NCBI RefSeq assembly: GCF_003044035.1
Contig: NZ_NVQC01000016.1
Span: forward strand, 90,001 to 122,000
Direction of reading: 5' to 3'
From: Candidatus Methylomirabilis limnetica
GTDB lineage: Bacteria > Methylomirabilota > Methylomirabilia > Methylomirabilales > Methylomirabilaceae
DNA: 32,000 nucleotides
Shown here: positions 2,953 to 24,122 of the stretch, one piece after another
Layout: the number at the start of each line of letters is the position of its first letter
How positions within the stretch are numbered: the stretch's first letter is position 1
Position numbers and translations under genes: made by a program
Notes under the pieces: model-generated
What the model was told of the DNA's origin: nothing
The model's input: only the letters and a program-made list of their open reading frames with translations
The model's database searches: none

Positions 2953-2984
2953 CGCAGCATCCCAGAGGTCTCTTTCCTTTGATT

Positions 2985-3041
2985 GTCATTCCGGGCTTGA
3001 CAAGCCTGCCCCGTACTTGATACGGGGGAATCCAGGTTCAG
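2985..3041 (-). repeat. REP-like hairpin element (ggaatgac / ctggattcc family), related to 26492-26552
   Basis: Its reverse complement shares ctggattcc and tgtcaagcNcggaatgac with 26492-26552. It contains the hairpin ccccgta-cttga-tacgggg. Intergenic. Confidence 0.6.
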
Positions 3042-3077
3042 TGCGATCATCATCAGAAGCTGAGTGCTGACAGCTTC

Positions 3078-3953
3078 TTGAGCTGGAACATGGCAAACAT
3101 TCTCATAGCCGGCTGTGGTTATATCGGAACAGCGTTAGGCTCTCTGCTCGCGGCGGAAGGGCATACCGTCTGGGGACTGCGTCGCCGACCCGCCATACTT
3201 CCGCCGGACATTCGCCAATGTGCGGCCGACCTGACCTCGCCTGGCACGCTTTGCGCGCTGCCGCCGGCCCTTGATTATATCTTCTACACCGCTGCGCCAG
3301 ATACGCATGACGATGTGGCCTACCGGGCAGTCTATGTGGAAGGGCTCAACAACCTACTCGATGCTCTTATTCGGCAACGGCAGCATCCCCGGCGTCTCTT
3401 TCTCACCTCGAGTACCGGAGTCTACGCGCAAACATCTGGAGAGTGGGTAGATGAGACCGCACCAGCCGAGCCAACTGAGTTTGCCGGGATTCTCCTCCGC
3501 GAAGGTGAACGCCTCCTACTTGATGGTCCTTTCCCGGCCACCGTCCTACGACTGGGCGGCCTCTACGGTCCAGATCGCGCGGGCCTGATCGAGAAGGTGC
3601 GTCGAGGCGAGGTCGTTGGGGGTGGCGAGTCGCCCGTCTATTTCAACCGTATCCACAGGGATGACGCTGCCGGGGCCCTGCGCCATCTGATGATGTTGCA
3701 GCAGCCGGACTCCCTCTACCTTGGAGTCGATGACGAGCCAACCGAACTGATCGTTGTCCTTCGCTGGTTGGCAGGGGCGCTTGGCGTGCCGCCGCCCTGG
3801 CAGGCCGAATCTTCCCCCCTGCGGATGCCTCGCCACGGAAGCAACAAGCGTTGCCGCAACGTTAGACTCACCGCCTCCGGCTACGCGTTCCGCTATCCGA
3901 CCTTCCGCGAGGGATATGCGGCCCTGCTCACAGAGCAGGCAGGGGCCTGTTAG
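3078..3953 (+). CDS. NAD-dependent epimerase/dehydratase (SDR family)
   Basis: ILIAGCGYIGTALGSLL glycine-rich motif. TTG 3078 or, more likely, ATG 3090 (MANILIAG...). 291/287 aa. Confidence 0.8.
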   Translation: MSWNMANILIAGCGYIGTALGSLLAAEGHTVWGLRRRPAILPPDIRQCAADLTSPGTLCALPPALDYIFYTAAPDTHDDVAYRAVYVEGLNNLLDALIRQRQHPRRLFLTSSTGVYAQTSGEWVDETAPAEPTEFAGILLREGERLLLDGPFPATVLRLGGLYGPDRAGLIEKVRRGEVVGGGESPVYFNRIHRDDAAGALRHLMMLQQPDSLYLGVDDEPTELIVVLRWLAGALGVPPPWQAESSPLRMPRHGSNKRCRNVRLTASGYAFRYPTFREGYAALLTEQAGAC

Positions 3954-4079
3954 TCAGCATCTCTGCAAAACTCTCTCATCAACATAGAATTGGCTCTTCC
4001 TGTTTTTCCATCTGATCTATCTGATCTATTTGGTCTGTGACCAGAAAGACGAAATGACCAGATAGACCCAACCTCCCGC

Positions 4080-5402
4080 TTATGCCTTTACGACCTTGTC
4101 CAGGGGGATGCCCTTGAAGGCGTTCCGCGTATCTACGATCAAAGGGGCGTGCTGACGGATCAGGTCGAGGTCAAACGCCGAGTGATTCGTCACAAGGATT
4201 ACCGCATCCTGCGCCTGAAGGGTCTCTGCTGTTAGTGGTAGAGCGGTCAGGTCAAGGTCGGGATAGTGACGGTGGCCATGGCATCGGGGGACGTGAGGAT
4301 CCGAGTAATTCACCCGGGCTCCCTGTTGCCGTAGCAGCGTCAGGATCTCGAGTGCCGGGCTTTCCCGCTGATCGTCGATGTCCTTCTTGTACGCTACACC
4401 CAGAACCAGGAGGCTGGAGCCGTGCAGCGACTTGCCTCTTCTGTTCAGCGCCTCGACGACTTTTCCCACCACCCAGGCCGGCATGGCATGGTTGATTTCG
4501 CCGGCGACCTCAATGAAGTGAGTGGACAGGCCGTACTCGCGGGCTTTCCATGTGAGATAGAAGGGGTCGATAGGAATGCAGTGGCCCCCTAACCCTGGTC
4601 CCGGATAGAAAGCCTGAAAGCCAAAGGGCTTGGTGGCAGCAGCGTCGATGACCTCCCAGATGTTAATTCCCATGCGGTCCGAGAGTATCTTGAGCTCATT
4701 CACCAGCGCGATGTTCACCGCTCGGTAGATATTCTCCAGGAGCTTGGTCATTTCGGCCTCCCTGGGAGAGGTGACCCGCACTACGGTGGCCACAATCGTT
4801 CCGTAGAGCGTTTCGCCTAATTCCCCACAGGCATCCGACACCCCTCCGAGGACCTTGGGGATAGTAGCCAAGCCGAAGTGTGTATTCCCTGGATCTTCCC
4901 GCTCTGGTGAGAAGACGAGAAAGAAGTCTCGCCCTACCTGAAGGCCCGTTGCCTCAAAGCGGGGCTGAAGGATTTCCTCAGTGGTGCCGGGGTAGGTGGT
5001 ACTCTCCAGGCAGATGAGCTGGCCGGCTCGCAGGGTGCCGGCAATGGCGTCGGCGGTCTGTACGACGTACTGGAGGTCGGGGTTTCGATGGCGCGTCAGT
5101 GGTGTGGGAACACAGATGAGAATGGCATCGGCCTCTCTGAGGCGGGCGAAGTCGGTGGTAGCTTCGAACCGGCCTGACCTAACCAGGGAGGCTACCCGAT
5201 CTGCCGGGAGATGCTGGATGTAGCTCTCTCCGGCGTTGATATGCTTCACTTTGTCAGGGTCGACGTCAAAGCCCAGGACGCGAAAACCCACCTCCCCGAA
5301 GCGCAACACTGCCGGCAGCCCGACATACCCCAAGCCAATGACGCCGACCGTATAGTCTCGGCGTCCGATACGTTCTTTCAGATGCGGGATGAGCGATGTC
5401 AT
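4080..5402 (-). CDS. nucleotide-sugar dehydrogenase (UDP-GlcNAc/GalNAc 6-dehydrogenase-like, WbpA/TviB-type)
   Basis: 440 aa. VGVIGLGYVGLPAVL NAD motif, a GGHCIPIDP catalytic-Cys motif and the C-terminal UDPG_MGDP_dh architecture. Confidence 0.9.
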   Translation of the reverse strand: MTSLIPHLKERIGRRDYTVGVIGLGYVGLPAVLRFGEVGFRVLGFDVDPDKVKHINAGESYIQHLPADRVASLVRSGRFEATTDFARLREADAILICVPTPLTRHRNPDLQYVVQTADAIAGTLRAGQLICLESTTYPGTTEEILQPRFEATGLQVGRDFFLVFSPEREDPGNTHFGLATIPKVLGGVSDACGELGETLYGTIVATVVRVTSPREAEMTKLLENIYRAVNIALVNELKILSDRMGINIWEVIDAAATKPFGFQAFYPGPGLGGHCIPIDPFYLTWKAREYGLSTHFIEVAGEINHAMPAWVVGKVVEALNRRGKSLHGSSLLVLGVAYKKDIDDQRESPALEILTLLRQQGARVNYSDPHVPRCHGHRHYPDLDLTALPLTAETLQAQDAVILVTNHSAFDLDLIRQHAPLIVDTRNAFKGIPLDKVVKA

Positions 5403-5507
5403 CGTGTGTCCTTTCTTCTCATAAGGCGAGGGCCCTCGGTGGCGCCATAGAGGCCAACCGGCTGTGGTGAGGTTTCACGAGTTGTTTTCCGCAGGCAGCA
5501 CAACGAA

Positions 5508-9930: not shown

Positions 9931-12552
9931 ATGGCAAACAACAAGATTCTTATTCGGGGTGCGCGAGAGCACAACCTTCAGTCGATTGACCTGGAGATCC
10001 CTCGGGACAAGCTTGTGGTCATCACCGGCGTCTCCGGCTCCGGGAAGTCGTCGCTGGCGTTCGACACCATCTATGCCGAGGGTCAGCGTCGCTACGTCGA
10101 GTCGCTTTCTACGTACGCCCGTCAGTTCCTGGAGCAGATGGATAAACCGGACGTAGACCTGATCGAGGGGCTCTCGCCGGCGATCTCCATCGAGCAGAAG
10201 ACCACCAGCAAAAACCCCCGTTCGACCGTGGCGACAGTGACGGAGATCTACGATTACCTCCGCCTCCTGTTTGCCAGGGTGGGTAAGCCGCACTGTTACG
10301 CCTGCGGTAAGCCGATCGCGTCCCAGACGGTGCAGCAGATCGTGGACCAGGTGATGGCACTGCCGGATGGAAGTAAGTTCCAGGTCCTGGCCCCGGTCGT
10401 GCGAGGGCGGAAGGGGGAGTACCGCCAGGTCTTCGCTGACCTGCGCCGGCAGGGATTCGTCCGCGTTCGTGTCGACGGTAAGCCTCGGGAATTGGAAGAG
10501 TCGATCGAGCTGGACAAAAATAAGAAGCACACGATCGAGGTGGTGGTGGATCGGCTCGTTCTGAAGGCGGATATTCAAAAACGGCTGGCTGATTCGCTCG
10601 AGACCGCGCTCAAGCTCAGCGAGGGGATTGTGGTAGTCAACCTCCTCGATCCGTCGAAGGATCTGACCTTCTCCGAGCGCCTGGCCTGCATCGACTGTGG
10701 CGTCAGCTATCCGGAAATCAGCCCTCGCATCTTCTCCTTCAATAGCCCGCACGGCGCCTGCCCCACGTGCGACGGCTTGGGCACGAAGCTGGACGGACGG
10801 ATGGACGATCTCCCGGGTATCCTGGAGCCGTGGCACGGTAAAGCGAACATCCACTATCTGGACCGCCGCTATAAGGAGACCTCTTCATCCAAGGTGCGGG
10901 AAGAGATTGAAGACTACGTCAAGCACTTGGCCAACGTCCGCCCCTGCCCGGATTGTCAGGGGACGCGCCTGCGGCGGGAGTCACTGGCTATCAAGGTAGA
11001 TGGCAAGTCGATCGCGGACGTGACGCATTACTCGGTCAAGGCGGGGCTGCGGTTCTTCCAGGACCTACAGTTCAGCGAGAAAGACCATGAGATCGCCCGC
11101 CGCATCCTGAAGGAGCTACGGGAGCGTCTGACGTTCCTCGTGAACGTCGGCCTCGACTACCTGACCCTGGACCGGACTGCGGCCACCCTGGCCGGCGGAG
11201 AGGCGCAACGAATCCGCTTGGCGACGCAGATCGGTAGCTCACTGGTCGGCGTCCTGTACATCCTGGACGAGCCCAGCATTGGCTTGCATCAACGGGATAA
11301 TGTCCGCCTCCTGGATACCCTGAAGCGGCTCCGCGATTTGGGGAACACGGTCCTGGTTGTGGAGCACGACGAAGAGACGATCCGTCTTGCCGACTATGTC
11401 ATCGATATGGGCCCAGGGGCAGGGGTTTCTGGTGGGCGAGTCGTGGCGTGCGGGAGCCCTCGGGACATCATCAGACATAAGAGTTCGCTGACCGGTCAGT
11501 ACCTGTCGGGACGCATGACGATTCCTGTTCCTGCCCTTCGACGGCGAGGGAACGGGCGCGTCCTCACCATCATCGGAGCGCGAGAACATAACCTCAAGAA
11601 CATCGAGGTGGAGATCCCCCTGGGTGTGTTGACCTGCGTGACGGGCGTGTCCGGTTCCGGGAAGAGCACCCTGGTGAACGAGATCCTGCGGCGGGCGCTC
11701 GATCGCAAGCTCTACGGCTCTCGGGAGCGACCGGGAGCGCACGACAAGATTCTTGGCGCCGAGCATATCGACAAGGTGATCGATATCGATCAGTCGCCCA
11801 TCGGCCGCACCCCCCGCAGCAACCCGGCGACCTATACGGGCGTCTTCAATTTCATCAGGGAGCTGTACGCGCTGGTTCCGGAATCGCGTATCCGGGGCTA
11901 CAAGCTTGGCCGCTTCAGTTTCAATGTCAAGGGCGGCCGATGTGAGGCCTGCCAGGGCGACGGGCTGATCCAGATCGAGATGCACTTCCTCCCAGATGTC
12001 CACGTCACCTGTGATATCTGCAAGGGGGCCCGCTACAACCGGGAGACGCTGGAGATTATCTATAAGGGCAAGAGCATTGCCGATGTATTGGATATGACCG
12101 TACAAGAGGCGCTGGCCTTCTTTCAGCCTGTCCCCAAGATCAAGGAGAAACTTCAGACCCTTTTTGATGTTGGTCTTGGCTACATTAAACTGGGCCAGTC
12201 GGCCACGACGCTCTCTGGCGGTGAGGCGCAGCGAGTCAAGCTGTCGCGGGAACTCAGCAAGCGAGGGACCGGCCAGACCCTGTATATCCTGGATGAGCCG
12301 ACCACCGGGCTGCACTTCCACGATATCCGCCAACTCCTGGAGGTCCTGCACCGCCTGACCGATGCTGGCAACACCGTCGTAGTGATCGAGCACAACCTCG
12401 AGGTGATCAAAACGGCTGACTGGATCATCGACCTGGGCCCGGAGGGCGGCGATGAGGGAGGGCATGTCGTCGTAGCAGGCCAGCCGGAGGAGGTGGCCGC
12501 CCATCCGACCTCCTACACCGGCCAATTCCTGGCACGCACCCTGAAAGGCTAA
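9931..12552 (+). CDS. uvrA: excinuclease ABC subunit A (UvrA), 873 aa, with a shortened insertion domain
   Basis: N-terminal [52 protein letters not shown], two Walker A sites (GVSGSGKS twice), two LSGGE signatures and Zn modules CYAC/CIDC, CPTC/CPDC, CEAC..CDIC. Confidence 0.95.
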
Positions 12553-12794
12553 GAGGGGTAGAGACCACGCGTGTACCCGCCACTTTTTGGCGCAACTCAT
12601 CAACCCGCCGCCGACCCTTTCACCCCAGCACCCCACTGCGAAAGTCGACTCCTCAGGAGAATCTATGGGTAGATTCTGGCCCGGGTAAAGCGCCAAGCGT
12701 ATGATGCAAGGCGATTTCAGTCGCATGATAGGTTCGAGAACCATACGCTTTTCTGGTAGTCAGTTTCGCTTTGGTGCTAAAACCCTCCACCTCT

Positions 12795-12938
12795 CTATGT
12801 CTGGCGGTTCACCTCTACCCCCAGGATGTCAGAGGCTTTTGTTTGGAGTTCTACCAATGCCTCGGCCCGCTCTGCTCTGGCTCTGAGCCGCGCCTTCTCC
12901 CTATCCCTATCCCTCTCCATCACCGACACGTTCCTCTC
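12795..12938 (-). pseudogene. possible transposase coiled-coil fragment (family uncertain)
   Basis: Minus-frame ...MERDRDREKARLRARAERAEALVELQTKASDILGVEVNRQT* resembles the leucine-zipper/ELQKK-type N-terminal segments of some DDE transposases. Recall only. No complete ORF. Confidence 0.2.
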
Positions 12939-13145
12939 CAAGTGATCTTTTCCCCTTGGTGTCGGCCCCCGTTGCTTGGGCGTAAGTCATGTGACCTCAC
13001 CCAAAAATAGAGATCGCCATAGCCGAGACACTGCTATACGCCGATCACCGCCGTTTTACGACCTCATGACATATGATGTACCCCGAAAACCGGACAGGGG
13101 GGGGGTGAGTGAGAATCTTCCGTGTCTGGAGTATCACCAGAGTAG

Positions 13146-13330
13146 GTGCGGATCATGACGAGAAGTCTCAGACGGCAACACAGTGAGGAGGTCAAGGCGT
13201 GGGCAGTGTTGGAGGCGCATCCAGTCCAGATGAGCCAGTGGAAGAAGCTAGCGAAGGAGGGTCTTCAGGATCTGTTCTCTCGACGGAAAGACTTGTCCAT
13301 CAAGGCGGAAGCAGAATTATCAATTCGACG
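13146..13330 (+). pseudogene. IS3-family OrfA (HTH transposase) remnant with an internal deletion
   Basis: RRQHSEEVKAWAVLEA / HPVQMSQWKKLAKEGLQDLFSRRKDLSIKAEAE matches the IS3 OrfA pattern FSPEFKAKVALEAL...VHPNQISQWKRQLLEG..FS (recall). The HTH core between the two blocks is missing, and there is no OrfB/DDE part. Confidence 0.45.
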
Positions 13331-13722
13331 GCGTCGTCGTGGTCGGTCAGACGGTGATCGTAGCGCTGGACCTCACCCGCGACAGGGAGAAGAAGCTCCA
13401 TGGACTGACTGCCCCTTTGGTCTACGGAAATAACGCCGATTTCTTATAGGAAAGCGGCGAGGTTGTCGAACGGGTTCATCGCAGTCAGCGCATTGGGAAT
13501 AGGTGTGATCTCAGCTCCTTTTACGCTAGCACATGACACTTTATGTCATACGCAGTGCTACTTATTAGCAATAGCTCTCCCACTCTAAGCTAGTACGTAT
13601 TGGTAAGTAGCGGTTTTACTGCTGTTTAATTGTGGTCCAATCTTTGCAGATAGGCTTAAGTGGTTTACCTCTCGCAATGTGTTTTGTGGGTATCGGTGTC
13701 AACGAGAAGAAGAGACAGTTCA

Positions 13723-14118
13723 ATGAGATGCTTGGCGAATTTAAGCAGGTCGAAAAGAAACATTATGATCTGCTTGGTCGCACAGCTTGTATTTATCACA
13801 GGATGCGGACTTCATTCGGAAGTTCCGGCGATCTCAGGCGAAGTCAGTACGCCAGGGTTTGCACTAACTACATCCGCCGAGCACCGAGTGCATCTTTCTG
13901 GGTGGCTACACATCATCTGGAACGGTGAGCCTCGGTTCGTCCTTATTGACGACCAGGGTACGGCTACCCATGTTGTCATCGATGAAACTGTAGCCAAAAC
14001 CTTCGGAGGACCTAGAAAGCTGAATCAGAAGCGCGTGATCATTACAGGAGAGCGCATGGACGAGCCAATCGAGACGATCCGAGTTCTATCGATCGAAATG
14101 GGAAAGGATGGGAAGTAA
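13723..14118 (+). CDS. small lipoprotein, paralogous to the N-terminal domain of the downstream metalloprotease
   Basis: MRCLANLSRSKRNIMICLVAQLVFITGC has a basic n-region and an ITGC lipobox. The stop lies 2 nt before the protease ATG. Shared blocks with protease residues about 66-150: SG.LHI, L(I/L)DD, G.P..(L/I)NQ(K/Q)RV.(I/V)TG. Alternative start ATG 13765. Confidence 0.55.
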   Translation: MRCLANLSRSKRNIMICLVAQLVFITGCGLHSEVPAISGEVSTPGFALTTSAEHRVHLSGWLHIIWNGEPRFVLIDDQGTATHVVIDETVAKTFGGPRKLNQKRVIITGERMDEPIETIRVLSIEMGKDGK

Positions 14119-14120
14119 AC

Positions 14121-16397
14121 ATGCTAAAGGGAGAACAGATAATCAGGCAATGCCATAAACGTCTGCACGCAGCGCTCCTTCTCTTCACCTTCAGCTTGCT
14201 GTCGTTAACTCCAAGCACTATGTACGCGAACAGCGATACTCTCCCTGCGACGAAGGGGCTATCAAGGACCGCGCAACTGGCGAACAAGTCCCTGCTAAAT
14301 GTTGGGCCAACGGAAACCTTCTCTGGTCGGCTCCATATTCTCTATGGAGATGCTCCTTCTGGATCGGGACTCCCCCCGACCTCCGGTTACATGTTGCTCG
14401 ACGATCATGCTCGGGCCATCGAATTATTTTTTGGTGAGCAGGCACAGGGCCTTCTCGGGTCTCCAATGGAGATCAATCAGCAACGAGTCTCCGTGACGGG
14501 TCGAGCGGCCATCCTTCCGATTGCGAATGGTCACACGCCTGTGCCGCTAGTAACCGTCCAGGCGCTTCAACACGAGGGGTTGAAGCCTGCCGCCAACGCG
14601 GTGGCAGCGGCATTGGCCGTGAGCGGGTCCCAGCCTTGGGCAACGCTTCTGTGTCGATTCAAAGATTCTGCAGAGGTTACGCCACATCCTGTCGAATGGT
14701 TTAAAACCCTCATGTTGGGTACCTCCGCTCCAGGGTTGGAACACTATTGGAGAGAACTCTCCTTCAATAACGTCAATCTCGCCGGTAGCGCGGTCTACGG
14801 GTGGTACACGCTTCCTAACCCACGCTCCTATTACGTCTCTGGAAGTCCCGAACAACTTAACCACCAAAAAGCTGCCACCGACTGTACGGCCGCCGCGAAT
14901 CCTGATGTGTTATTCCCAACGTTTGTCGGCATCAACCTCATGTTCAATGGTCAGCTTGATGGCTACGCCTGGGGGGGAAGCTGGACCATGACGCTAGACG
15001 GGGTTACTAAGTCTTTTCGCATGACATGGCTTCCCCCATGGGGATATGAGAACCAGGGACCGGTTGGACACGAAATGGGGCATGGATTTGGGCTTCCACA
15101 CTCCTCCGGTGACTATGGCCAGACCTATGATTCCCGGTGGGATGTCATGAGCGATATTTGGGACAACTGTAGGGTATCGCGTGATCCGATTTACGGATGT
15201 GTCGGTCCCCACACGATCTCCTACCACAAAGACTTCCTTGGGTGGGTCCCAAGCGCTCAGAAGTATACCGCTAGTCCCAACACAGATCAAACCATCACCA
15301 TGGATCACATTGGCCAACTCGCGTCAGGGACCAACTATCTGATGGCGCAGATTCCGATCAATGGGTCGACGACCCAGTTCTATACGGTTGAGACTCGACG
15401 CCTTGTGGGATACGACGCGAAACTCCCGGGTGAGGCCATAGTCATTCATCGCGTCGACACGGCCCGGTGGGATTCGGACGCACAAGTGGTCGATCCAGAT
15501 AGAAACGGTAATCCAAACGATGTGGGAGCAATGTGGGTGACGTCCGAGACCTTCGTCGACCCGACAAACGGCATTTCCGTCTCAGTACTCTCCTCTACAG
15601 CCACGTCGTTTGTGGTGCGAATCATGCTCGGCGACGCAAGACCGCCTTCGCCAGATCTGGTGATGTTTAATGTGGTCAATCCGCCGGCAACCGTTGCGAT
15701 GGGTGGCAGCTTCTTGACTGGCGACTCCATCTATAACTCGGGAACGGCAGCAGCAGGAGCATCAACTACCCGCTACCGACTGTCCATAGATGCGACCATC
15801 ACCGGCGGAGATATCCTCTTGACCGGCACTAGGAGCGTTCCAAGCCTAGCAGCAGGGATCAGCCACAGCGGTAGCGTGACCGTCACAGTACCTACGAGCG
15901 TTCCAGTGGGAACCTACTTCCTCGGTGCCTGCGCTGACGATCTCGGTGCTATCATAGAATCCAACGAGACGAATAACTGTCTCGCCTCGAAGACGACGAT
16001 CCAAGTGCAGGCTGTTCCAGCGCGACCCGACCTAGTGGTCAGTAAACTCAGCTTCAAGATAACCGCTGTGCGGAGAGGCGCCAGATTGACGGTGACCGAC
16101 ACCACCAAGAACGCTGGATCAACGGCAGCAGGAGCATCAACTACCCGCTACCGACTGTCCATAGATGCGACCATCACCGGCGGCGATATCCTCTTGACCG
16201 GCACTAGGAGCGTTCCAAGCCTAGCAGCAGGGATCAGCCACAGCGGTAGCGTGACCGTCACTGTACCTACGAGCGTTCCGGCGGGAACGTATTATCTCGG
16301 TGCGTGCGCTGACGATCCCGCTGTGGTGGCAGAAGCGAACGAGGGCAACAACTGTTTGGTCTCCAACAACCCGAAGCAGATCATAGTACGGAATTAG
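14121..16397 (+). CDS. secreted zinc metalloprotease (M6/InhA-like domain, HExxHxxGxxH motif) with two C-terminal CARDB domains
   Basis: Signal-like N-terminus. ATLLCRFKDS...LEHYWRELSFNNVNLAGSAVYGWYTLPNPRSYY resembles the M6-family domain. Zinc site is GHEMGHGFGLPHS. Two 125-aa units PDLV...NETNNC / PDLV...NEGNNC fit CARDB. Confidence 0.85.
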   Translation: MLKGEQIIRQCHKRLHAALLLFTFSLLSLTPSTMYANSDTLPATKGLSRTAQLANKSLLNVGPTETFSGRLHILYGDAPSGSGLPPTSGYMLLDDHARAIELFFGEQAQGLLGSPMEINQQRVSVTGRAAILPIANGHTPVPLVTVQALQHEGLKPAANAVAAALAVSGSQPWATLLCRFKDSAEVTPHPVEWFKTLMLGTSAPGLEHYWRELSFNNVNLAGSAVYGWYTLPNPRSYYVSGSPEQLNHQKAATDCTAAANPDVLFPTFVGINLMFNGQLDGYAWGGSWTMTLDGVTKSFRMTWLPPWGYENQGPVGHEMGHGFGLPHSSGDYGQTYDSRWDVMSDIWDNCRVSRDPIYGCVGPHTISYHKDFLGWVPSAQKYTASPNTDQTITMDHIGQLASGTNYLMAQIPINGSTTQFYTVETRRLVGYDAKLPGEAIVIHRVDTARWDSDAQVVDPDRNGNPNDVGAMWVTSETFVDPTNGISVSVLSSTATSFVVRIMLGDARPPSPDLVMFNVVNPPATVAMGGSFLTGDSIYNSGTAAAGASTTRYRLSIDATITGGDILLTGTRSVPSLAAGISHSGSVTVTVPTSVPVGTYFLGACADDLGAIIESNETNNCLASKTTIQVQAVPARPDLVVSKLSFKITAVRRGARLTVTDTTKNAGSTAAGASTTRYRLSIDATITGGDILLTGTRSVPSLAAGISHSGSVTVTVPTSVPAGTYYLGACADDPAVVAEANEGNNCLVSNNPKQIIVRN
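15750..15904 (+). repeat. intragenic near-identical repeat, copy 1 (core of CARDB domain 1)
   Basis: 153 of 155 nt are identical to 16125-16279 (offset 375 nt = 125 codons). Flanking parts of the two CARDB units are strongly diverged. Confidence 0.9.
16125..16279 (+). repeat. intragenic near-identical repeat, copy 2 (core of CARDB domain 2)
   Basis: See 15750-15904. The only mismatches are ggag/ggcg and cacagt/cactgt. Confidence 0.9.
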
Positions 16398-16468
16398 GGT
16401 CAGCGCGAACTTGATTCTTCGCGGTGTCCGGAGGAAGTGACCTACACGGCGTGGGACTTAGGACCATT

Positions 16469-16512
16469 CGCCAAGGTGGAATCTGTCGATGGTTGCAGAT
16501 TCCACCTTGGCG
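16469..16512. repeat. perfect 17-bp-stem hairpin (10-nt loop) downstream of the protease gene
   Basis: cgccaaggtggaatctg (16469-16485) and cagattccaccttggcg (16496-16512) are exact inverted repeats. There is no T-run on either side, so it is not a canonical intrinsic terminator. Confidence 0.85.
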
Positions 16513-16794
16513 TCAGTATGGAGCGTAGAGCTTCCTCACTTACGGATGCTGGACTGATCAAGATCGCTTTTCAGGCGGTACCAGCACGGGCCCATAAAGT
16601 CCGCATGAAGAAACGAAGGCATAGTGTGGACAGTATGCGCGGGCAGGGTGGAGAGTCAATAGTAGTGTGGGAGCACGCGCGGTGCGGCGCCGAGGCCGAT
16701 CTGAACACCGACGCGGACCTGTTGTGCTGCGAGCCGGGCCGCACGTCGGCAGACCGCTCCGATCGCGATGGTCGTACCCGTTTGCGTACATTCT

Positions 16795-17100
16795 TACAGG
16801 GTCAGTGTCGTCATCAGGGACAGGGTCATCAAGACGGGGCACGATGACCCTGCCCGACATCTCAGGCGATGCGTTGGCTGAAGAGACGCGCACACCTCTG
16901 CTCCCACAATCCGAGATGGCGAAGGATGCGCTCGATGCCCTGCCCCGGAGACCCGCCGCTATTAATCCCCGTGATTTCGGTGTCAAGTTCTTCAATCTGA
17001 CCCCCTTAGGGCGCACAAACCCCAGCGTGACCCGGCCACGGCCCTGAGGAGCGTGTTCGCGCAGTAGAGGAACACGGGTCCCGAAGTTGTCCTTAGGTGA
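16795..17100 (-). pseudogene. IS91-family (HUH/Y2 rolling-circle) transposase C-terminal remnant, with in-frame stop and frameshifts
   Basis: Minus-strand frames give ..ANTLLRAV.. / CAP*GGQI...ITGINSGGSPGQGIERILRHLGLWEQR / ..PRLDDPVPDDDTDPVRMYAN. These match my recollection of the IS91-type tail (WA.LL.RVF..D...CP.CGG.M.IIAFI....I.KIL.HLGLW....DDP.PD.D). The N-terminal two-thirds are absent. Recall only. Confidence 0.35.
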
Positions 17101-17405
17101 CCGTACCGGCGCGAGGCTCTACCCCGAGTTCTTCCAACGCGACAAGGCGTTGGCTCGTCGCGATCCTCCTCGCCCTCCTATGGCAAGACCGCCACCTTAC
17201 CCGTCGGGTACGTCTTCCTGAGGACCTGGCAACGGCATGTCCCGCCTGAGCACCCCCTCTAAACTGAAGTTCCTGCCAGCGCATAGCGAACGTTCCCTGT
17301 CTTTTCCGTTGATTAGCGCAAGAGTGGGGTTGTATTTTCTGTCTACACGTTGATCTGCTGAATCTGTTCGAGTGCACGCTTTTGCGTTGGGTTGAGGCTG
17401 GTGAT

Positions 17406-17909
17406 GACGCTGGAGATTATCTATAAGGGTAAGAGCATCGCCGGCGTCTTGGACATGACCGTGGAAGAGGCGCTCCGCTTCTTCCAGCCTGTCCCCAAGA
17501 TCAAGGAGAAACTCCAGACCCTGTTTGACGTCGGGCTTGGCTATATATCACACTGGGCCAGTTGGCCACGACGCTCTCGGGCGGTGAGGCGCAGCGGGTC
17601 AAGCTGTCGCGGGAACTCAGCAAACGAGGGACCGGCCAGACCCTGTATATCCTGGATGAGCCGACCACCGGGCTGCACTTCCACGATATCCGCCAACTCC
17701 TGGAGGTCCTGCACCGCCTGACCGATGTTGGCAACACCGTCGTAGTGATCGAGCACAACCTGGAGGTGATCAAGACGGCCGACTGGATCATCGACCTGGG
17801 CCCGGAGGGCGGGGATGAGGGAGGGCATGTCGTCGTAGCAGGACAGCCGGAGGAGGTGGCCGCCCATCCGACCTCCTACACCGGCCAGTTTCTCAAGCGG
17901 ATGCTTTAA
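17406..17909 (+). pseudogene. uvrA: displaced 3' end of uvrA (last ~168 codons), frameshifted
   Basis: Aligns end to end with 12045-12530 of the intact uvrA. A 2-nt indel patch at 17539-17557 (ggctatatatcacactggg vs ggctacattaaactggg) splits it into ORF-track frames 17392..17721 and 17562..17909. No 5' 2.1 kb. Confidence 0.9.
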
Positions 17910-18247: not shown

Positions 18248-18553
18248 CTATGCACGTACCGGAGCAGGCTGGTAGCGCCGGACACGGATCGTACGCTCGC
18301 GCTGACGCGCTTGCGCGATATCGTAGGACGATTGCATGCGCATGAGCGTCTCCATGTCCACACCGAAGGCTTTTTCGAGACGTAGTGCCATGTCGCCGGA
18401 AAGGGAAGCCTTGCCGTTGAGCAAGCTGGACAGCGCTGGCCGGCTCACACCCAATGTCTGTGCGGCAGCAGTCACGGTCAAGCCGTGCGCGTCGATGATT
18501 TCGGTACGAATAAAGTCGCCCGGATGAGGCGGGTTCAACATACGCATCGTCAT
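18248..18553 (-). CDS. higA: HigA-family antitoxin (XRE-type HTH), module 1
   Basis: MTMRMLNPPHPGDFIRTEIIDAHGLTVTAAAQTLGVSRPALSSLLNGKASLSGDMALRLEKAFG is the typical HigA/VapI HTH. It lies 8 nt downstream of the toxin gene. Confidence 0.85.
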   Translation of the reverse strand: MTMRMLNPPHPGDFIRTEIIDAHGLTVTAAAQTLGVSRPALSSLLNGKASLSGDMALRLEKAFGVDMETLMRMQSSYDIAQARQRERTIRVRRYQPAPVRA

Positions 18554-18561
18554 GTCTCCTG

Positions 18562-18846
18562 TCAGTGATAGTCCTCGAAATTCACGTCATGGATTTCGTC
18601 GTCCTCGACGCGTAATGTGAGCCGCCAGTTCCGCGTCACGTGTAGGCTCCATGTGCCTTTGCGGCTGCCGGTTAATACATGCGCCTTCCACGCCGGGAAC
18701 GCGCGAAGCGTTTCCACATCCTGTACGTCCTGCAGGAACGCCAGCATCTTACGGAGCTTGTCCACGGCCTCGGACGGAAGACCTTTCGTCACGTCTTCTG
18801 CGTAAAGCCGTCTTAAGGGCTTGTGGGTGAAGCTCCGGATCTTCAC
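18562..18846 (-). CDS. higB: HigB-like toxin (plasmid-maintenance killer / RelE superfamily), module 1
   Basis: VKIRSFTHKPLRRLY...LRAFPAWKAHVLTGSRKGTWSLHVTRNWRLTLRVEDDEIHDVNFEDYH fits the HigB pattern (..DYEDYH tail). GTG 18846 was chosen because a TTGACA-17-TACATT promoter ends 6 nt upstream. The ORF-track start 18951 lies upstream of that promoter. Confidence 0.8.
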   Translation of the reverse strand: MKIRSFTHKPLRRLYAEDVTKGLPSEAVDKLRKMLAFLQDVQDVETLRAFPAWKAHVLTGSRKGTWSLHVTRNWRLTLRVEDDEIHDVNFEDYH

Positions 18847-18852
18847 TCTATC

Positions 18853-18881
18853 AATGTAGCCTGTTAGGCGACACTTGTCAA
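18853..18881 (-). promoter_or_regulatory. sigma70-type promoter of higBA-1 abutting the start codon
   Basis: Minus strand reads TTGACA (18881-18876), 17-nt spacer, TACATT (18858-18853), then gataga and GTG at 18846. Confidence 0.5.
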
Positions 18882-19191
18882 TAACACAACACCCCCTCCT
18901 TCCCCCTCGCCCCATCGGCTGCGCCATGTACGCTAGAAGGCGTGTTGACACTAGGGTCGGTGTCTGCCAGAGTCACCGGCAGTTTGCCGGGCCGCCTGAT
19001 TCCACCGCCTTTTCCTTGATAGGGGTAGGGTAGCTTTCTATACTCCCGCGAGTGATAACCAGACGAATATAGTGCAACTGGTGTAAGACTTCCGCAGTGG
19101 AGGGGTCGGATGATTGCCGACGGCCACGGTGGTGTCATATGGAATCAAGCGAACGCGCCTGACAGATATGATAAAAATGAGCCCCGCCATC

Positions 19192-19220
19192 TTTTGGCTA
19201 TCCGGATTGATCTGTGAAAT
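19192..19220 (+). repeat. 29-nt direct repeat, left copy (flanks the MITE-higBA-MITE unit)
   Basis: ttttggctatccggattgatctgtgaaat recurs at 20703-20732 with one extra g (ctgtgGaaat). Confidence 0.9.
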
Positions 19221-19238
19221 CCGCTGCGTGTAAAATAG

Positions 19239-19532
19239 AAAATAGGGACAGACACTATTATCGTGACGATTCGTGGTGTTCGCGGTCATGATCGGCATGC
19301 CACGGATTACTCGAACCGTTGCAGCCAGCCACCCGTAGCATGTGAGACAACGAGGGAATTAGCACCAGACGGTCTTTCAAAACGACAGCGATGCGAAGGC
19401 ACACGATGACAGAGCGGCCACTGCAAAGAGACGGGTTCATCTGGGAGGTGCGCAGGACACTGGACGAGTAAGACACGTGGTGCAGAGGGGAAGACCAAGA
19501 AAGGATCTCAATAAATAGTGTCTGTCCCTATA
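19239..19532 (+). mobile_element. 294-bp TIR-bounded non-coding element (MITE-like), copy A
   Basis: Left end is aaaatagggacagacactatt and right end is aatagtgtctgtccctat (inverted). It differs from copy B (offset 1163 nt) at 5 positions by hand alignment. No credible ORF. Confidence 0.75.
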
Positions 19533-19626
19533 TCCAATATCTTCTAACGTCGGCTTTTGAAAAAGATCACCACCGGCAGGTAATGGCCGATTGGAGCTAA
19601 ATCCTAAATCTGTTCAGGTGTAGCCC

Positions 19627-19655
19627 TTGCAGCGAGTATATCTTTTTGATATAGT
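19627..19655 (+). promoter_or_regulatory. sigma70-type promoter of higBA-3 abutting the start codon
   Basis: TTGCAG (19627-19632), 17-nt spacer, TATAGT (19650-19655), then cgtgct and ATG at 19662. No SD. Confidence 0.55.
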
Positions 19656-19661
19656 CGTGCT

Positions 19662-19964
19662 ATGCACATCATTTCACTGAAGATGCTGCGTGACTTCTGG
19701 CACAGGCATCCTGAAGCCGAGCAGTCTTTGCGCAACTGGCACACCGTCGCCGAGAATTCTCGCTTTGCTGACTTTGCTGATCTACGGCAGAGCTTTTGTG
19801 GTGCCGATTATGTTCCGCCTTATACCGTGTTCGATGTCGGCGGCAACAACTATCGGGTTGTTGTCATCGTTCGCTACCGCGATGGCAAGATATTCGTGCG
19901 TTGGGTAATGACTCACCGGGAATACGACAACTGGTGCAAGCTTTACAGGAAAGGCAAGGTGTAA
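19662..19964 (+). CDS. higB: HigB-family mRNA interferase toxin (E. coli HigB/YgjN type), module 3
   Basis: MHIISLKMLRDFW...YTVFDVGGNNYRVVVIVRYRDGKIFVRWVMTHREYD parallels E. coli HigB (..VFNVGGNELRVV....YIREVMTHKEYD), from recall. Confidence 0.8.
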   Translation: MHIISLKMLRDFWHRHPEAEQSLRNWHTVAENSRFADFADLRQSFCGADYVPPYTVFDVGGNNYRVVVIVRYRDGKIFVRWVMTHREYDNWCKLYRKGKV

Positions 19965-19966
19965 AC

Positions 19967-20395
19967 ATGACAACCGCTACTGCGACTCTGGACATCAAGG
20001 CGCTGCAAAAGACTTGGGCCGCGTTTGATCGCGTCGCCCATTTGCGTCCGATCCGTACCGAGGAAGAGTATGACCGTACTGTTTCGCTTATGAACTATCT
20101 GTTGGACATGGTCGGCGACCGGGAGAATCACGCCTTGTCAGGGCTTCTTGATCTCGTCAGCGAACTGGTGGCGGACTATGACACCAACCACTTCGCCATC
20201 GAAGCTTCCGAACCCAATGAGGTTTTGCGCTACCTGATCGAATTACGCGGTCTGAAGCAAGGTGATCTGGCGGAGATCGTCCCACAGAGCAACCTTTCAG
20301 CGATTCTTTCCGGCAAGCGAAAGATCAGCGCAACCCTGGCGGGGAAGCTGGCCAAGTTCTTCAACACCAGCCCAGCGGTATTCGTGCCTGGCTAA
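19967..20395 (+). CDS. higA: HigA-family antitoxin (E. coli HigA/YgjM type, C-terminal HTH), module 3
   Basis: ATG 19967 lies 2 nt after the toxin stop. The C-terminal LRYLIELRGLKQGDLAEIVPQSNLSAILSGKRKISATLAGKLAKFF is an XRE HTH. The ORF-track start 19796 lies inside higB. Confidence 0.8.
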   Translation: MTTATATLDIKALQKTWAAFDRVAHLRPIRTEEEYDRTVSLMNYLLDMVGDRENHALSGLLDLVSELVADYDTNHFAIEASEPNEVLRYLIELRGLKQGDLAEIVPQSNLSAILSGKRKISATLAGKLAKFFNTSPAVFVPG

Positions 20396-20401
20396 ATAGG
20401 G

Positions 20402-20695
20402 AAAATAGGGACAGACACTATTATCGTGACGATTCGTGGTGTTCGCGGTCATGATCGGCATGCCACGGATTACTCGAACCGTTGCAGCCAGCCACCCGTA
20501 GCATGTGAGACAACGAGGGAATTAGCACCAGACGGTCTTTCAAAACGACAGCGAATCGGAGGCACACGATGACAGAGCGGCCACTGCGAAGAGACGGGTT
20601 CATCTGGGAGGTGCGCAGGACACTGGACGAGTAAGACACGTGGTGCAGAGGGGAAGACCAAGAAAGGATCTCAAAAAATAGTGTCTGTCCCTATT
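20402..20695 (+). mobile_element. 294-bp TIR-bounded non-coding element (MITE-like), copy B
   Basis: Same orientation as copy A. The TIR extends to 21 bp here (aaaatagggacagacactatt / aatagtgtctgtccctatttt, through 20697). It starts 7 nt after the higA-3 stop. Confidence 0.75.
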
Positions 20696-20702
20696 TTTGA
20701 TT

Positions 20703-20732
20703 TTTTGGCTATCCGGATTGATCTGTGGAAAT
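20703..20732 (+). repeat. 30-nt direct repeat, right copy
   Basis: ttttggctatccggattgatctgtggaaat. See 19192-19220. Confidence 0.9.
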
Positions 20733-21022
20733 AGTCGAATGAATCCCGGATCCATTTGGACTGCAATCTCCCAGGCCGTCCGATGCTGGTGCAGATTAGT
20801 GATCTAATGTACGCTCCTCCGATCCGAGGAGGAGGATGTAAGGGAACCTTAGTGGAACCCGGCGACTAATGGCGCAGAAAACGCTTGACATCTCTGGGGG
20901 GGGGCTATCCTTGCACGAGTTGTTTTCATGCTTGACATTCGGAGCATGTGATAAGTTGCCGTCCCTATCCGTGAAATACTACGGGATTTGCAGTACACAG
21001 TAGAGATAAGGAGACCCCAACG

Positions 21023-22210
21023 GTGACCCGTCTCGCCCGCTTTTACGTGTGTGCCACCGCCCTGCTCCTTGCCTGCGCGCTCGCCCCGGCCTTTGCCGCT
21101 GAAGCCGCCACTCGCTTCGTCGCCACCACAGGTAGTAACGCCGGGCCAAATACTTGCCTCGCATCCGGGTCACCCTGCAAAACGATCACCTACGCCCTCA
21201 TCACCCAGGCCGTGGCCAACGACACGATCTCGGTCGCGGCCGGGACCTACAATCCCGCCCTGGGCGAGACCTTCCCCCTCGTGATCGCCGTCAACCTGAC
21301 CCTCACCGGCGCGGGTGCGCCTGGTACGATCATTGATGCCGGAGGGACGAACCAGGTAGTCCAGAACAACTTCGCGACCGTGACCATCTCGGGGGTGACG
21401 ATCACGGGCGGCGATTTCGCCCAAGGTGGTGGTCTCTCCAACTTCGGCACGCTCACCCTGACGAACAGCACCGTGAGCGGGAATACGGCAAGCTGCGCGG
21501 CAACGACACTCTCCTGCTTCGCCCAAGGTGGAGGCATCTACAACAACGCCGGCACGCTCACCCTCACCAACAGCACCGTGAGCGGGAATACAGCAAGCTG
21601 CTCGGCCAGCGGCAGCGGCAACGGATGCCGCGCCGAAGGCGGCGGCCTCTACCTCAACAGCGCCACGACCCTTGCGAACAGCACCGTGACCGCGAACACG
21701 GCGAGCTGCACCACCAGCGCGGGCGCCTCCTGCAGCACCGGCGGCGGCGGCACTTTCAGCGATGGAGAAGGAACATCGGTCCTGAGCCTCGGGGCCACGA
21801 TTGTCGCGCTCCAGCTCGCGGGGGCGGACTGCGACGGCGACGCCAGCACCTCGAACGGCTTCAATCTTGACAGCGACACCACTTGCGGCCTGTCCGGGAC
21901 TGGGGATCAGTCGGGGGTGGTAAACCCCCTTCTCGGGCCCCTCCAAAACAACGGGGGGCCGACCAACACCCACGCGCTCCTCACCGGGAGCCCCGCCATC
22001 GACGCCGTGACGAGCGGCTGCCCGCCGCCTGCCACCGACCAGCGCGGCATCACGCGCCCTCAGGGTCCCGCCTGCGACATCGGGGCGTATGAGGTCCAAA
22101 CGGCGGCGGCCGGCATCCCCACCCTGTCCGAGTGGGCCCAGATCGGCATGGCGGCCCTGCTCGTGGGCGGCGGGTTGCTCGCCCTCAGACGGAACAGGCA
22201 GCTATCGTGA
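21023..22210 (+). CDS. secreted parallel-beta-helix repeat protein with a choice-of-anchor-Q-like region and an IPTL-CTERM sorting signal
   Basis: GTG 21023 has AAGGAG 9 nt upstream. Signal peptide is ..LLLACALAPAFAAEA. There are NSTVSGNTASC repeats and TDQRGITRPQGPACDIGAYE. The C-terminus is IPTLSEWAQIGMAALLVGGGLLALRRNRQLS, that is motif, TM helix and basic tail. Confidence 0.85.
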   Translation: MTRLARFYVCATALLLACALAPAFAAEAATRFVATTGSNAGPNTCLASGSPCKTITYALITQAVANDTISVAAGTYNPALGETFPLVIAVNLTLTGAGAPGTIIDAGGTNQVVQNNFATVTISGVTITGGDFAQGGGLSNFGTLTLTNSTVSGNTASCAATTLSCFAQGGGIYNNAGTLTLTNSTVSGNTASCSASGSGNGCRAEGGGLYLNSATTLANSTVTANTASCTTSAGASCSTGGGGTFSDGEGTSVLSLGATIVALQLAGADCDGDASTSNGFNLDSDTTCGLSGTGDQSGVVNPLLGPLQNNGGPTNTHALLTGSPAIDAVTSGCPPPATDQRGITRPQGPACDIGAYEVQTAAAGIPTLSEWAQIGMAALLVGGGLLALRRNRQLS

Positions 22211-22251: not shown

Positions 22252-22764
22252 ATGCGCACCATACCGCAGCAGAATCTCCTGAAGCAGCAACAGGGCCTGT
22301 ACTTCTGCCTGCGCTTCGGCCTCTACACCCTGCTTGCCTTCCTGTTCCTGTATGCCCTGGACGATCGGCTCGTCGTGCCGTTTACCCGTGTCATCGCCTG
22401 GCTGTCCCACACCCTCCTCACGATCCTGGGTGCCCGAAGCTGGGTTGCAGGCGCCTCCGTCGGCATCCCCGGCTTTGCGGTCGAGATCAAGAACAACTGT
22501 AACGCGATCTATGAGATCGGCCTGTACGCCTCAGCGGTCTTCGCCTACCCCGCGACCCTCACGCAGCGCATCCTCGGATGTCTCTCAGGCGCAGTTGTGC
22601 TGTTCCTGGTCAACCTCCTGCGCGTGCTCAGCCTGATCGGCATAGGCCGGTACTTTCCTGGAGGGTTTCAGATTGCCCACCTCTACCTCTGGCAGGCCCT
22701 TTTCCTCGCCCTCGTCGCCGCCTGCTGGCTTATCTGGCTTAGCCGGATTCGCAGACTCGCTTAG
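22252..22764 (+). CDS. short exosortase-family transpeptidase (exosortase H-like; subtype inferred from the adjacent IPTL-CTERM substrate)
   Basis: 170 aa, polytopic. Candidate catalytic residues are Cys83 (VEIKNNCNAIYEIG), Arg124 (VNLLRVLS) and His143 (FQIAHLYLW), in the Cys...Arg...His order of exosortases/archaeosortases. It starts 42 nt after the substrate gene. Confidence 0.7.
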   Translation: MRTIPQQNLLKQQQGLYFCLRFGLYTLLAFLFLYALDDRLVVPFTRVIAWLSHTLLTILGARSWVAGASVGIPGFAVEIKNNCNAIYEIGLYASAVFAYPATLTQRILGCLSGAVVLFLVNLLRVLSLIGIGRYFPGGFQIAHLYLWQALFLALVAACWLIWLSRIRRLA

Positions 22765-23546: not shown

Positions 23547-23837
23547 TTACGCCGCCTCAAGCCGCCTCAGTTGTTTGAACCGGTCGGTGGGGACGCGGGT
23601 AAGGTCGTATTGTGCCTGCTGGAGCAGCCAGCTTTCGGCGCTCCCTCCGAAGACCTTTGACAGTCGTACGGCCATTTCCAGAGAGATGCCGCGCTTCCCG
23701 TTCACGAGTTCGGACAGGGTGGTACGCGTGACGCCGAGGGCCGCGGCGGCCTCGGTTATAGTCAGGCCGAGCGGCTCGATACAGTCGTGTAGCACAACAC
23801 CGCCGGGATGAGGGGGGTTCTTCATGCGCATGGTCAA
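23547..23837 (-). CDS. higA: HigA-family antitoxin (XRE HTH), module 2
   Basis: [64 protein letters not shown]. Paralogous to module 1 antitoxin. Confidence 0.85.
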
Positions 23838-23843
23838 GCCTCC

Positions 23844-24122
23844 TTAGTGGTAATCCAGATAATCCACGTCCCACGCCTCGCCCTCGGCGAAGCGAAAGAT
23901 GGTACGCCAGTTCGCGTGAACGGTTACGGCATGAAAGCCCTGAAGGTCGCCTCTGAGCGGGTGCAGCCGATACCCCGGCAAGTCCATGTCGGACGCCGAC
24001 CGCGCCGCATTCAGCCTTGCCAGAATACGTCGCAATTTGTCGGCATGCTCGGCGGCTACGCCACGTGCGTCATCGTTCTCGAACAGCCTTCGCAAGCCTT
24101 TATGCCGGATCGAACCAATCAT
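23844..24122 (-). CDS. higB: HigB-like toxin (plasmid-maintenance killer type), module 2
   Basis: MIGSIRHKGLRRLFENDDARGV...LPGYRLHPLRGDLQGFHAVTVHANWRTIFRFAEGEAWDVDYLDYH is the canonical HigB pattern. Confidence 0.85.
   Translation of the reverse strand: MIGSIRHKGLRRLFENDDARGVAAEHADKLRRILARLNAARSASDMDLPGYRLHPLRGDLQGFHAVTVHANWRTIFRFAEGEAWDVDYLDYH

Follow-up and report, generated by a model that had tools for sequence, protein, structure and literature searches.

A putatively imported higBA cassette between RAYT-derived elements, inserted at an ISL3-like repeat in Candidatus Methylomirabilis limnetica

In a 32,000-nucleotide stretch of Candidatus Methylomirabilis limnetica DNA (contig NZ_NVQC01000016.1, positions 90,001 to 122,000; here called the window), a higBA toxin-antitoxin cassette lies between two 294-nt elements, A and B, and the whole is framed by a direct repeat of about 29 nt. 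A preliminary description had proposed that this 1.5-kb unit was inserted with duplication of a 29-nt site, and had likened it to a composite transposon built from MITEs (miniature inverted-repeat transposable elements). Protein neighbors and named homologs assign the window to Candidatus Methylomirabilis, phylum NC10. The insertion was confirmed by an empty allele in which the flanks are joined through one 29-mer. The 29-mer itself was found to be the terminal repeat of another repeat family, X, that was already resident at the site. The account that we tentatively favor, at a little under even confidence, is a mosaic insertion by one crossover within the X terminal repeat, that is, a Campbell-type insertion-duplication. 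Contigs and loci compared with the window are labeled L001 to L177.

The layout and the mismatches first described for A and B were confirmed (Table 1). The two elements have the same orientation and length and are 98% identical, with 5 mismatches. The inverted-repeat sequence at their ends is the 21-nt AAAATAGGGACAGACACTATT, and the terminal inverted repeats of B are 100% complementary over 21 nt. The outer direct repeat, a 25-mer (TTTTGGCTATCCGGATTGATCTGTG) starting on the plus strand at 19192 and 20703, has exactly two copies in the 32 kb and carries on as AAAT past a 1-nt indel; none of 100 shuffles gave a match. The left and right copies (DR1 and DR2) lie 18 nt from A and 7 nt from B (5 to 7 nt according to where the ends are drawn), again in agreement with the earlier reading. 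The same layout was present in three independent assemblies (L001 to L003), and the left junction was also present in four further assemblies (L171 and L173 to L175), making an assembly artefact unlikely. GC content was 48 to 55% across the insert, against about 58 to 65% around it.

The empty allele, L166, was reached through a 68%-identical homolog of the DUF1565 protein encoded on the right flank; in a search by the exact flanking proteins, contigs broke off inside the repeats. Positions 4415-4723 of L166 match window positions 18916-19226 at 92%, and positions 4686-5478 match 20700-21503 at 83%. Both matches overlap on a single X end, so that the left flank, one 29-mer, and the right flank, which is syntenic in L166, are contiguous. 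A single X joining both flanks indicates that the 1.5 kb is a real insertion, and it supplies the single-copy site for which a search had been suggested. The X copy at the right junction of the window (X2) has the single X of L166 as its positional ortholog.

Past the common 29 nt, DR1 and DR2 diverge into different X variants. The tail of DR1 (AAATCCGCTG) resembles the X of L166 (AATCTGCTG) and that of L056 (AATCCGCCG) and then breaks off. The tail of DR2 is AAATAGTCG; it reads on as AAATAGTCGAATG and leads to a complete X. Simple duplication of a 29-nt target is disfavored because it would put insert-specific sequence after DR1, and a 37-nt duplication because six adjacent changes in DR2 would be needed. 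The 25/25 identity of DR1 and DR2 is uninformative on the age of the duplication, since the X end is the most conserved part of X.

That the 29-mer belongs to a repeat family was found in a metagenome scan, where the 20-mer GCTATCCGGATTGATCTGTG occurred in 23 contigs, one copy each. These contigs have at least 10 unrelated left flanks and a conserved right side, identifying the 29-mer as the left end of X. The family has a short form of ~105 to 108 nt (window 20705-20812, L056, L143, and L166) and a long form of ~360 nt (L135 at 321-~685, L136, L139, and L140). Both forms close with a conserved hairpin, GTGCAGATTAC..GTAATCTGCAC, and both have one recognizable terminal repeat. X2 was 78% identical over 96 nt to the copy in L143 and 72% identical over 89 nt to that in L056, with unrelated flanks. 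At the left junction, X1 is a truncated copy of X containing the left direct repeat (19192-19220). The 29-mer therefore is neither a site duplicated by the 294-bp elements nor a unique att core, as had been proposed. Of the junction reading of the repeat, the recombination junction stood, being a better fit than a transposase target duplication, and the att core did not.

One X copy, of 1,114 nt (L152, 640-1753), has the end sequence inverted at its far side, giving both terminal repeats, and is flanked by an 8-bp duplication (CTTTTTTT), the only independent duplication case. It contains a ~150-aa passenger open reading frame (ORF) that is lipoprotein-like by eye. The X terminal repeat agrees with the end of an ISL3 element in L134 at 15 of 26 positions, with GGCT and ATCTGTGG at the same offsets; the L134 element is complete, has an intact DDE_Tnp_ISL3 transposase gene (417 aa) and adjoins the resident antitoxin gene. 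X is thus probably an ISL3-derived noncoding repeat, although one duplication only was seen. No transposase remnants were found in the X loci by tblastn with the ISL3 transposase, a window search for an inverted counterpart of the 29-mer gave none at up to 10 mismatches of 26, and the X elements had no Rfam match. The possibility that X is a TnpB/IscB guide-RNA scaffold was dismissed, as there are no adjacent long ORFs and the terminal repeats and 8-bp duplication of L152 point to a DDE element.

The site is polymorphic, with at least five alleles: those of the window, L134/L177, L166, L176, and L171. The resident toxin-antitoxin pair forming the left flank (18248..18927) was kept beside the site in all of them. 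L134 (1-347) and L177 represent another strain of the window species (flank 98% identical). In it, an inverted derivative, 294 nt long and 89.6% identical to A, of a REP-associated tyrosine transposase (RAYT) unit breaks up the X terminal repeat after GGCTATCC, equivalent to window position 19203, and one more partial copy comes next. L176, a short contig, joins window positions 18897 and 23240, so that the beginning of the resident HigB-like toxin gene runs directly into the region of the SEC-C protein gene. The join implies either a ~4.3-kb deletion allele, without X, A, higBA, B, and the DUF1565 and exosortase genes, or else a rearrangement. L166 contains, about 30 nt left of X, a PIN/MazE-type (vapBC) cassette (insert 3462-4414). 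The cassette is flanked by a 246-nt target duplication, 92.7% identical (3216-3461 and 4415-4658), that corresponds to window 18916-19161. The resident HigB-like toxin gene of L166 has a 121-nt deletion (window 18769-18889 absent). The same gap thus houses different toxin-antitoxin cassettes in different strains.

Elements A and B align with both ends of ~750-bp RAYT units, with 455 nt absent in the middle (alignment with L073, L107, and L050). They keep the first ~20 and last ~30 codons only, with stop codons, and A retains a degenerate promoter and the remnant ORF MPRITRTVAASHP*HVRQRGN*. In five full-length units (L050, L107, L073, L081, and L117), 21-nt inverted copies ~750 nt apart enclose a gene of ~225 aa. 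The start codon is just inside one repeat, behind a TTGACA-N17-TAATGAT promoter, and a C-terminal AT-hook-like PRGRPKK and the stop codon fall in the other. The proteins have an HVH motif and the tyrosine of YVERNPVRAG; that of L050 matched Pfam Y1_Tnp at an E value of 1.5e-16 and NCBIfam REP_Tyr_transpos at 80.6 bits, a borderline pass of the cutoff of 80. L073 is Ca. M. oxygeniifera, a related species that has a full-length RAYT unit with the same terminal repeats. Like MITEs, A and B are short, have terminal inverted repeats, encode no transposase, and exist in several diverged copies. On these alignments, they are not generic MITEs but nonautonomous, internally deleted derivatives of a RAYT unit. 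The autonomous element with the same terminal repeat that the preliminary description had suggested searching for thus exists.

Further copies of the 294-nt derivative also exist, as that description had anticipated, at 84 to 92% identity (L011, L052, L056, L085, L086, and L134). They come from Methylomirabilis sp. bin48, a Patescibacteria-labeled metagenome-assembled genome (MAG), and another strain of the window species. All apparently have the same 455-nt deletion, as the alignment is colinear over the full 294 nt, and the derivative is on this evidence a multiplying nonautonomous family. L085 and L086 (DATMXF01, the Patescibacteria-labeled MAG) carry the Methylomirabilis-type derivative at 85 to 89% identity, probably through a binning error rather than cross-phylum transfer. 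No target-site duplication was seen abutting A, B, the copy in L056, or others, only a one-sided stutter. This stutter consists of 1 to 3 tandem partial copies of the outermost 6 to 10 nt on one flank of many RAYT units or derivatives, with the motifs AAAATAG, AAATAGGG, and GATATAG; at B it overlaps the higA stop codon. Repeated rounds of insertion and excision may have left it as a footprint, or alternative cleavage may have done so.

The distribution of the RAYT repeat was examined by scanning species-representative genomes with the 17-mer TAGGGACAGACACTATT, and the figures that follow hold among the matches listed. About 70 chance matches are expected in 596 Gb; most of the listed matches share an AAA...TTT context, and singletons without this extended context are probably noise. 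The identical 17-mer with extended context occurred in MAGs of Methylomirabilota, Nitrospirota, Elusimicrobia, Omnitrophota, Planctomycetota (anammox), and Desulfobacterota. The RAYT proteins across these phyla are roughly half identical as judged by eye, with no identity computed, and the flanking 17- to 21-nt repeat is identical. Hairpin doublets of the repeat were found in 8 contigs of one Elusimicrobia MAG and in several Omnitrophota MAGs; the loci with doublets include L007, L009, L040, L041, L058, and L097. The repeat unit AAATAGGGACAGACACTATT, as read from its letters, has no internal palindrome. No viral contigs carrying the RAYT repeat were matched.

The 813-bp cassette between A and B showed about 90.5% DNA identity over 814 nt to the Accumulibacter-type loci L158, L159, and L161. 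At the protein level, HigB was 95% and HigA 94% identical to Candidatus Accumulibacter-named modules. The homology extends from 79 nt upstream of higB to exactly the higA stop codon, where the ATAGGG stutter of B begins. In these donor-like genomes the cassette is part of a ~1.56-kb unit that has at least three different settings, in some of which it lies among other toxin-antitoxin pairs. The closest cassettes elsewhere (L158 to L165) were without A, B, and X, and all contigs encoding the exact HigB were the same locus. The 46-nt spacer between A and the cassette had no match in the fetched loci except the same locus in other assemblies. We infer that the cassette was acquired horizontally from a Rhodocyclaceae/Accumulibacter-like source. 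In L158 to L165 the ~1.56-kb unit occupies about 2317-3879 in locus coordinates, with a 108-aa ORF upstream, and its contexts include rows of toxin-antitoxin pairs (Phd/PIN_3, FitA/PIN) and short GC-rich border repeats (GGCCGCTTGTGGCC...); such units may form a cassette array.

In the HigBA family, HigB is a ribosome-dependent mRNA interferase, and HigA is a helix-turn-helix (HTH) antitoxin and repressor. By this family resemblance, the window pair would act as an addiction module of the ordinary type II toxin-antitoxin kind. Between the two genes there are 2 nt, the palindrome in the putative promoter overlaps the putative -10 element, and TATATCTTTTTGATATA is a candidate HigA operator. A consensus promoter scan called neither the higBA promoter nor the operator. 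The 21-bp terminal stem of B, with the T-run after it, could act as the higBA terminator. Two other signals considered in the unit were rejected. As a structured RNA, neither A, B, nor the 29-mer region had an Rfam match at gathering or E-value thresholds, and the fold z-scores of B (-3.6 and -5.3) were explained by its 21-bp terminal pairing. A sigma-54 promoter reading of TGGC...TTGA has a spacing that is off by one.

Next, we considered how the unit might have entered. In the favored crossover mechanism, the ancestral gap would have held one ~108-nt ISL3-like noncoding repeat X, as in L166, and a circular or looped DNA would already have contained a short X end together with A, higBA, and B. 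One crossover in the conserved terminal repeat, between the resident X and the X fragment on the incoming DNA, would then add ~1.5 kb and leave the first ~29 to 35 nt of X on both sides, with different inner tails. It could be the work of host homologous recombination or of an ISL3 transposase that uses its own terminal repeat. A single crossover is expected to leave two X ends that differ in ancestry, as observed. The circle would be expected to have the junction B-TGATT-TTTTGGCTATCC...GTG(G)AAAT-CCGCTGCGTGTAAAATAG-A.

This entry by an X-end crossover is also favored by analogy with the cassette duplication in L166 and with a second insertion in the window, in uvrA, 7 kb away. The 3' end of uvrA is duplicated in direct orientation (12045-12530 and 17406-17893, 488 nt, 93% identical), enclosing a 4.9-kb insert (12531-17405) that includes the remnant of an ISL3 end (12647-12791) and the gene of a CARDB protein (14121-16397). 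In the near-identical strain L171, uvrA is uninterrupted, and its single copy equals copy 1 in the left part and copy 2 in the right part, the switch falling where the two window copies are identical. The insert is polymorphic among strains that are 98 to 99% identical. The pattern is the textbook outcome of a clean single-crossover (Campbell-type) integration of a circle with a diverged homologous fragment.

Several points weigh against such a crossover at X. The common homology is ~29 to 35 nt only, marginal for RecA-type recombination, and neither the circle junction nor a donor locus has been observed; the assembly of A, higBA, and B is thereby pushed back to an unseen donor. The sole empty allele, L166, is a more distant relative (92% on the left flank, 83% on the right), too diverged for a Campbell hybrid pattern to be read at the 29-mer. 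A simple Campbell pattern expects an empty site of left flank, 29-mer, and AGTCGAATG, not the CCGCTG tail. The X tail of L166 (CTGCTG) is like that of DR1, not DR2, opposite to the simplest prediction unless the resident X of the window differed from that of L166. In addition, B meets the higA stop codon exactly, a hint that the RAYT-derived element was involved in the joining. Lastly, the RAYT-derived element inside the X terminal repeat in L134/L177 indicates that element insertions into X happen independently.

The last of these observations also fits a stepwise pile-up, which we regard as a less probable but substantial contender. Here RAYT derivatives would have gone into or next to X, higBA would have arrived separately, and the second X end would be a local duplication, produced by replication slippage, by template switching, or by an ISL3 transposase reaction that was aborted or aimed at the terminal repeat; the symmetry would be partly coincidence. 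Such a history accords with the highly polymorphic locus and its alleles, with the cargo-free tandem X-end motifs, 46 to 58 nt apart, of L056 and of the right end of L152, and with X2, which carries GGAAATAG, a motif seen as stutter beside RAYT units. The ISL3 remnant in the uvrA insert is likewise in its favor. However, A and B are 98% identical, against 84 to 92% in the family, as expected of sister copies and not of random arrivals. Several events would also be needed for a layout that one crossover explains, and the empty allele has one X end only.

Considerably weaker, in our estimate a long shot, is the idea that the ISL3-like X end and the RAYT 21-nt repeats serve as portable joining sites for toxin-antitoxin cassette swapping at the hotspot. 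Taken furthest, A-higBA-B would be a REPIN-like composite with cargo that a RAYT mobilizes in trans. If true, this would be the first cargo transport ascribed to RAYT, a supposedly domesticated transposase class. Among other pairs of the 21-nt repeat, those in L081 and L117 enclose the RAYT gene alone. In L048 a 171-aa gene lies between a repeat doublet and a RAYT unit, a position that is uninformative on cargo.

We consider it very improbable that A and B formed the ends of a MITE-bounded composite transposon, with a trans-acting transposase moving higBA and ~29 nt of target being duplicated. Two same-orientation sister copies do surround a cargo, full-length RAYT units with the same terminal repeats occur in L073, and the higA stop codon is exactly where B and the cassette meet. 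MITE-built composites are moreover already described for the Tn3-derived TIMEs (PMC4133298), a different element class. However, the direct repeats do not abut the element ends, the 29-mer is the terminal repeat of another element and was at the site beforehand, A-higBA-B was found in one genomic context only, and the Accumulibacter-type loci have the same cassette without A and B. The enzyme class is a further objection. RAYT/IS200-type HUH enzymes work on single-stranded DNA, and they are not known to make target duplications. Background on this class is given in PMC3337134, PMC5581495, and PMC6006769. The composite-transposon interpretation of the layout is therefore not supported.

Site-specific integration, with the 29-mer as the att core of a distant tyrosine or serine recombinase or in an integron-like or Xer/dif-like (IMEX) cassette, is the least probable of these readings: the ~29-nt length is like that of dif/att cores, a one-copy empty site exists, and X ends in L153/L148 and L136/L156 have genes for serine recombinases next to them (by eye only), but the window ORFs that were scanned with Pfam yielded no integrase or recombinase, the 29-mer acts as a transposon end in L152 (inverted partner and 8-bp duplication), the X tails of DR1 and DR2 differ, and there is neither likeness to the XerC/D arm consensus, with the XerD arm in particular showing no similarity, nor a sustained GC-skew switch at the site.

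The features of the unit, its flanks, and the compared RAYT units are collected in Table 1. Within 6 kb, the window has three HigB/RelE-type toxin-antitoxin pairs (18248-18927, minus strand; 19662-20395, plus strand; 23547-24122, minus strand), of which the two on the minus strand are PF05015/HTH and the imported one is PF09907/HTH. The DUF1565/IPTL-CTERM gene contains, at 21416-21751, three tandem repeats of ~105 nt with 67 to 70% identity (LTNSTVSGNTASC... units).

Table 1. Features of the 1.5-kb unit and its surroundings in window coordinates, with RAYT units and stutter sites of compared loci
Feature	Position	Strand	Basis or remark
Resident HTH antitoxin	18248-18547	-	Pfam
Resident HigB-like toxin (PF05015)	18562-18927	-	Pfam
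X1: T-run, ISL3-like terminal repeat GGCTATCCGGATTGATCTGTG-AAAT, and ~6 X-like bases (CCGCTG)	19189..19226	+	Exact 25-mer repeat; tail like X in L166, L056
12-nt spacer CGTGTAAAATAG	19227..19238	+	Read from sequence; holds AAAATAG, a partial tandem copy (stutter) of the A outer end
Element A	19238-19531 (part drawn 19238..19536)	+	Internally deleted RAYT unit; alignment with full-length L073, L107, L050
Element A inverted repeats	19239-19259 and 19512-19532		21 nt each
46-nt spacer between A and imported cassette	19537..19582
Putatively imported higBA cassette	19583..20395	+	Homology to L158, L159, L161
Putative promoter TTGCAG-N17-TATAGT with palindrome TATATC-N5-GATATA	about 19627-19656		Inferred from sequence
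higB	19662-19964	+	PF09907, E value 1.8e-25
higA	19967-20395	+	HTH_3, E value 1.6e-8
ATAGGG stutter and element B, T-run after	20396..20697	+
Element B	20401-20694	+	Second internally deleted RAYT unit
Element B inverted repeats	20402-20422 and 20677-20697		21 nt each
TGATT spacer and X2, complete short form of X	20698..20812	+	Similarity to L143, L056
X2 terminal repeat	20705-20730		Far end of X2 is hairpin GTGCAGATTAGTGATCTAATGTAC; overlaps right direct repeat 20703-20732
DUF1565/IPTL-CTERM secreted protein	21023-22210	+	Pfam; right flank
Exosortase	22252-22764	+	Pfam; right flank, presumed partner of IPTL-CTERM protein
RAYT units	L050 3745-4496; L107 2258-3009; L073 169-918; L081 4749-5523; L117 549-1343
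Stutter sites	window 19229-19238, 20393-20401; L052 ~165-190; L090, L104, L105, L009, L083, L115

The locus provides an example of toxin-antitoxin cassettes crossing phyla, from Rhodocyclaceae-type bacteria to NC10, and of such cassettes lodging in a rearrangement-prone intergenic hotspot. It also illustrates that junctions can be marked not by dedicated att sites but by the ends, short and conserved, of dead mobile elements, and it corrects the tempting reading of the unit as a MITE-composite transposon of a new kind that had duplicated 29 nt of target. The most unusual item is the RAYT family, with its cross-phylum identical repeat, multiplying deletion derivatives, and stuttered ends, features that fit poorly with the view that RAYTs are domesticated genes, present in single copy and inherited vertically.

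Among known systems, the RAYT/REP/REPIN arrangement (PMC3337134, PMC5581495) is similar in having a Y1 HUH transposase gene between inverted short repeats, with many short hairpin doublets of the repeat in the same genomes, as REPINs. It differs in that the classical REP is an imperfect palindrome, whereas the 21-nt repeat here is not itself a palindrome, and in that classical REP/RAYT pairs are lineage-specific and vertically inherited, whereas this repeat is identical across several phyla. In addition, A and B are multiplied deleted gene copies, an insertion-sequence-like behavior, and one flank often has stuttered partial end copies. The TIME-COMP elements, composites of two Tn3-derived MITEs that were shown to transpose and have 5- to 6-bp duplications directly at their ends (PMC4133298), likewise have two nonautonomous copies, in the same or opposite orientation, around a cargo. 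Unlike them, the unit described here has no duplication abutting A or B, has elements of the HUH class, and was not found at a second location.

X resembles the ISL3 family and its MITEs in an end that starts with GGCT and has ATCTGTGG, in the 8-bp duplication of L152, and in its many copies. Unlike those, most X copies have one terminal repeat and a conserved hairpin at the other end, with no transposase remnant. In Campbell-type insertion-duplication and in translocatable units in the style of the insertion sequence (IS) IS26, added DNA likewise comes to lie between direct copies of a once-single sequence. IS26-style units integrate next to a resident copy. The repeated part here differs in being the outer ~29 to 35 nt of a MITE, not a whole IS or a long homologous fragment. 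As in HigBA type II modules, HigB_toxin (PF09907) lies upstream of an HTH_3 antitoxin with a short gap and a palindrome over the putative -10 element, and nothing notable sets the present module apart. All parts are thus of known kinds, namely, a higBA module, a RAYT-derived element, an ISL3-like MITE, and a recombination-mediated integration, and they do not constitute a new transposon class.

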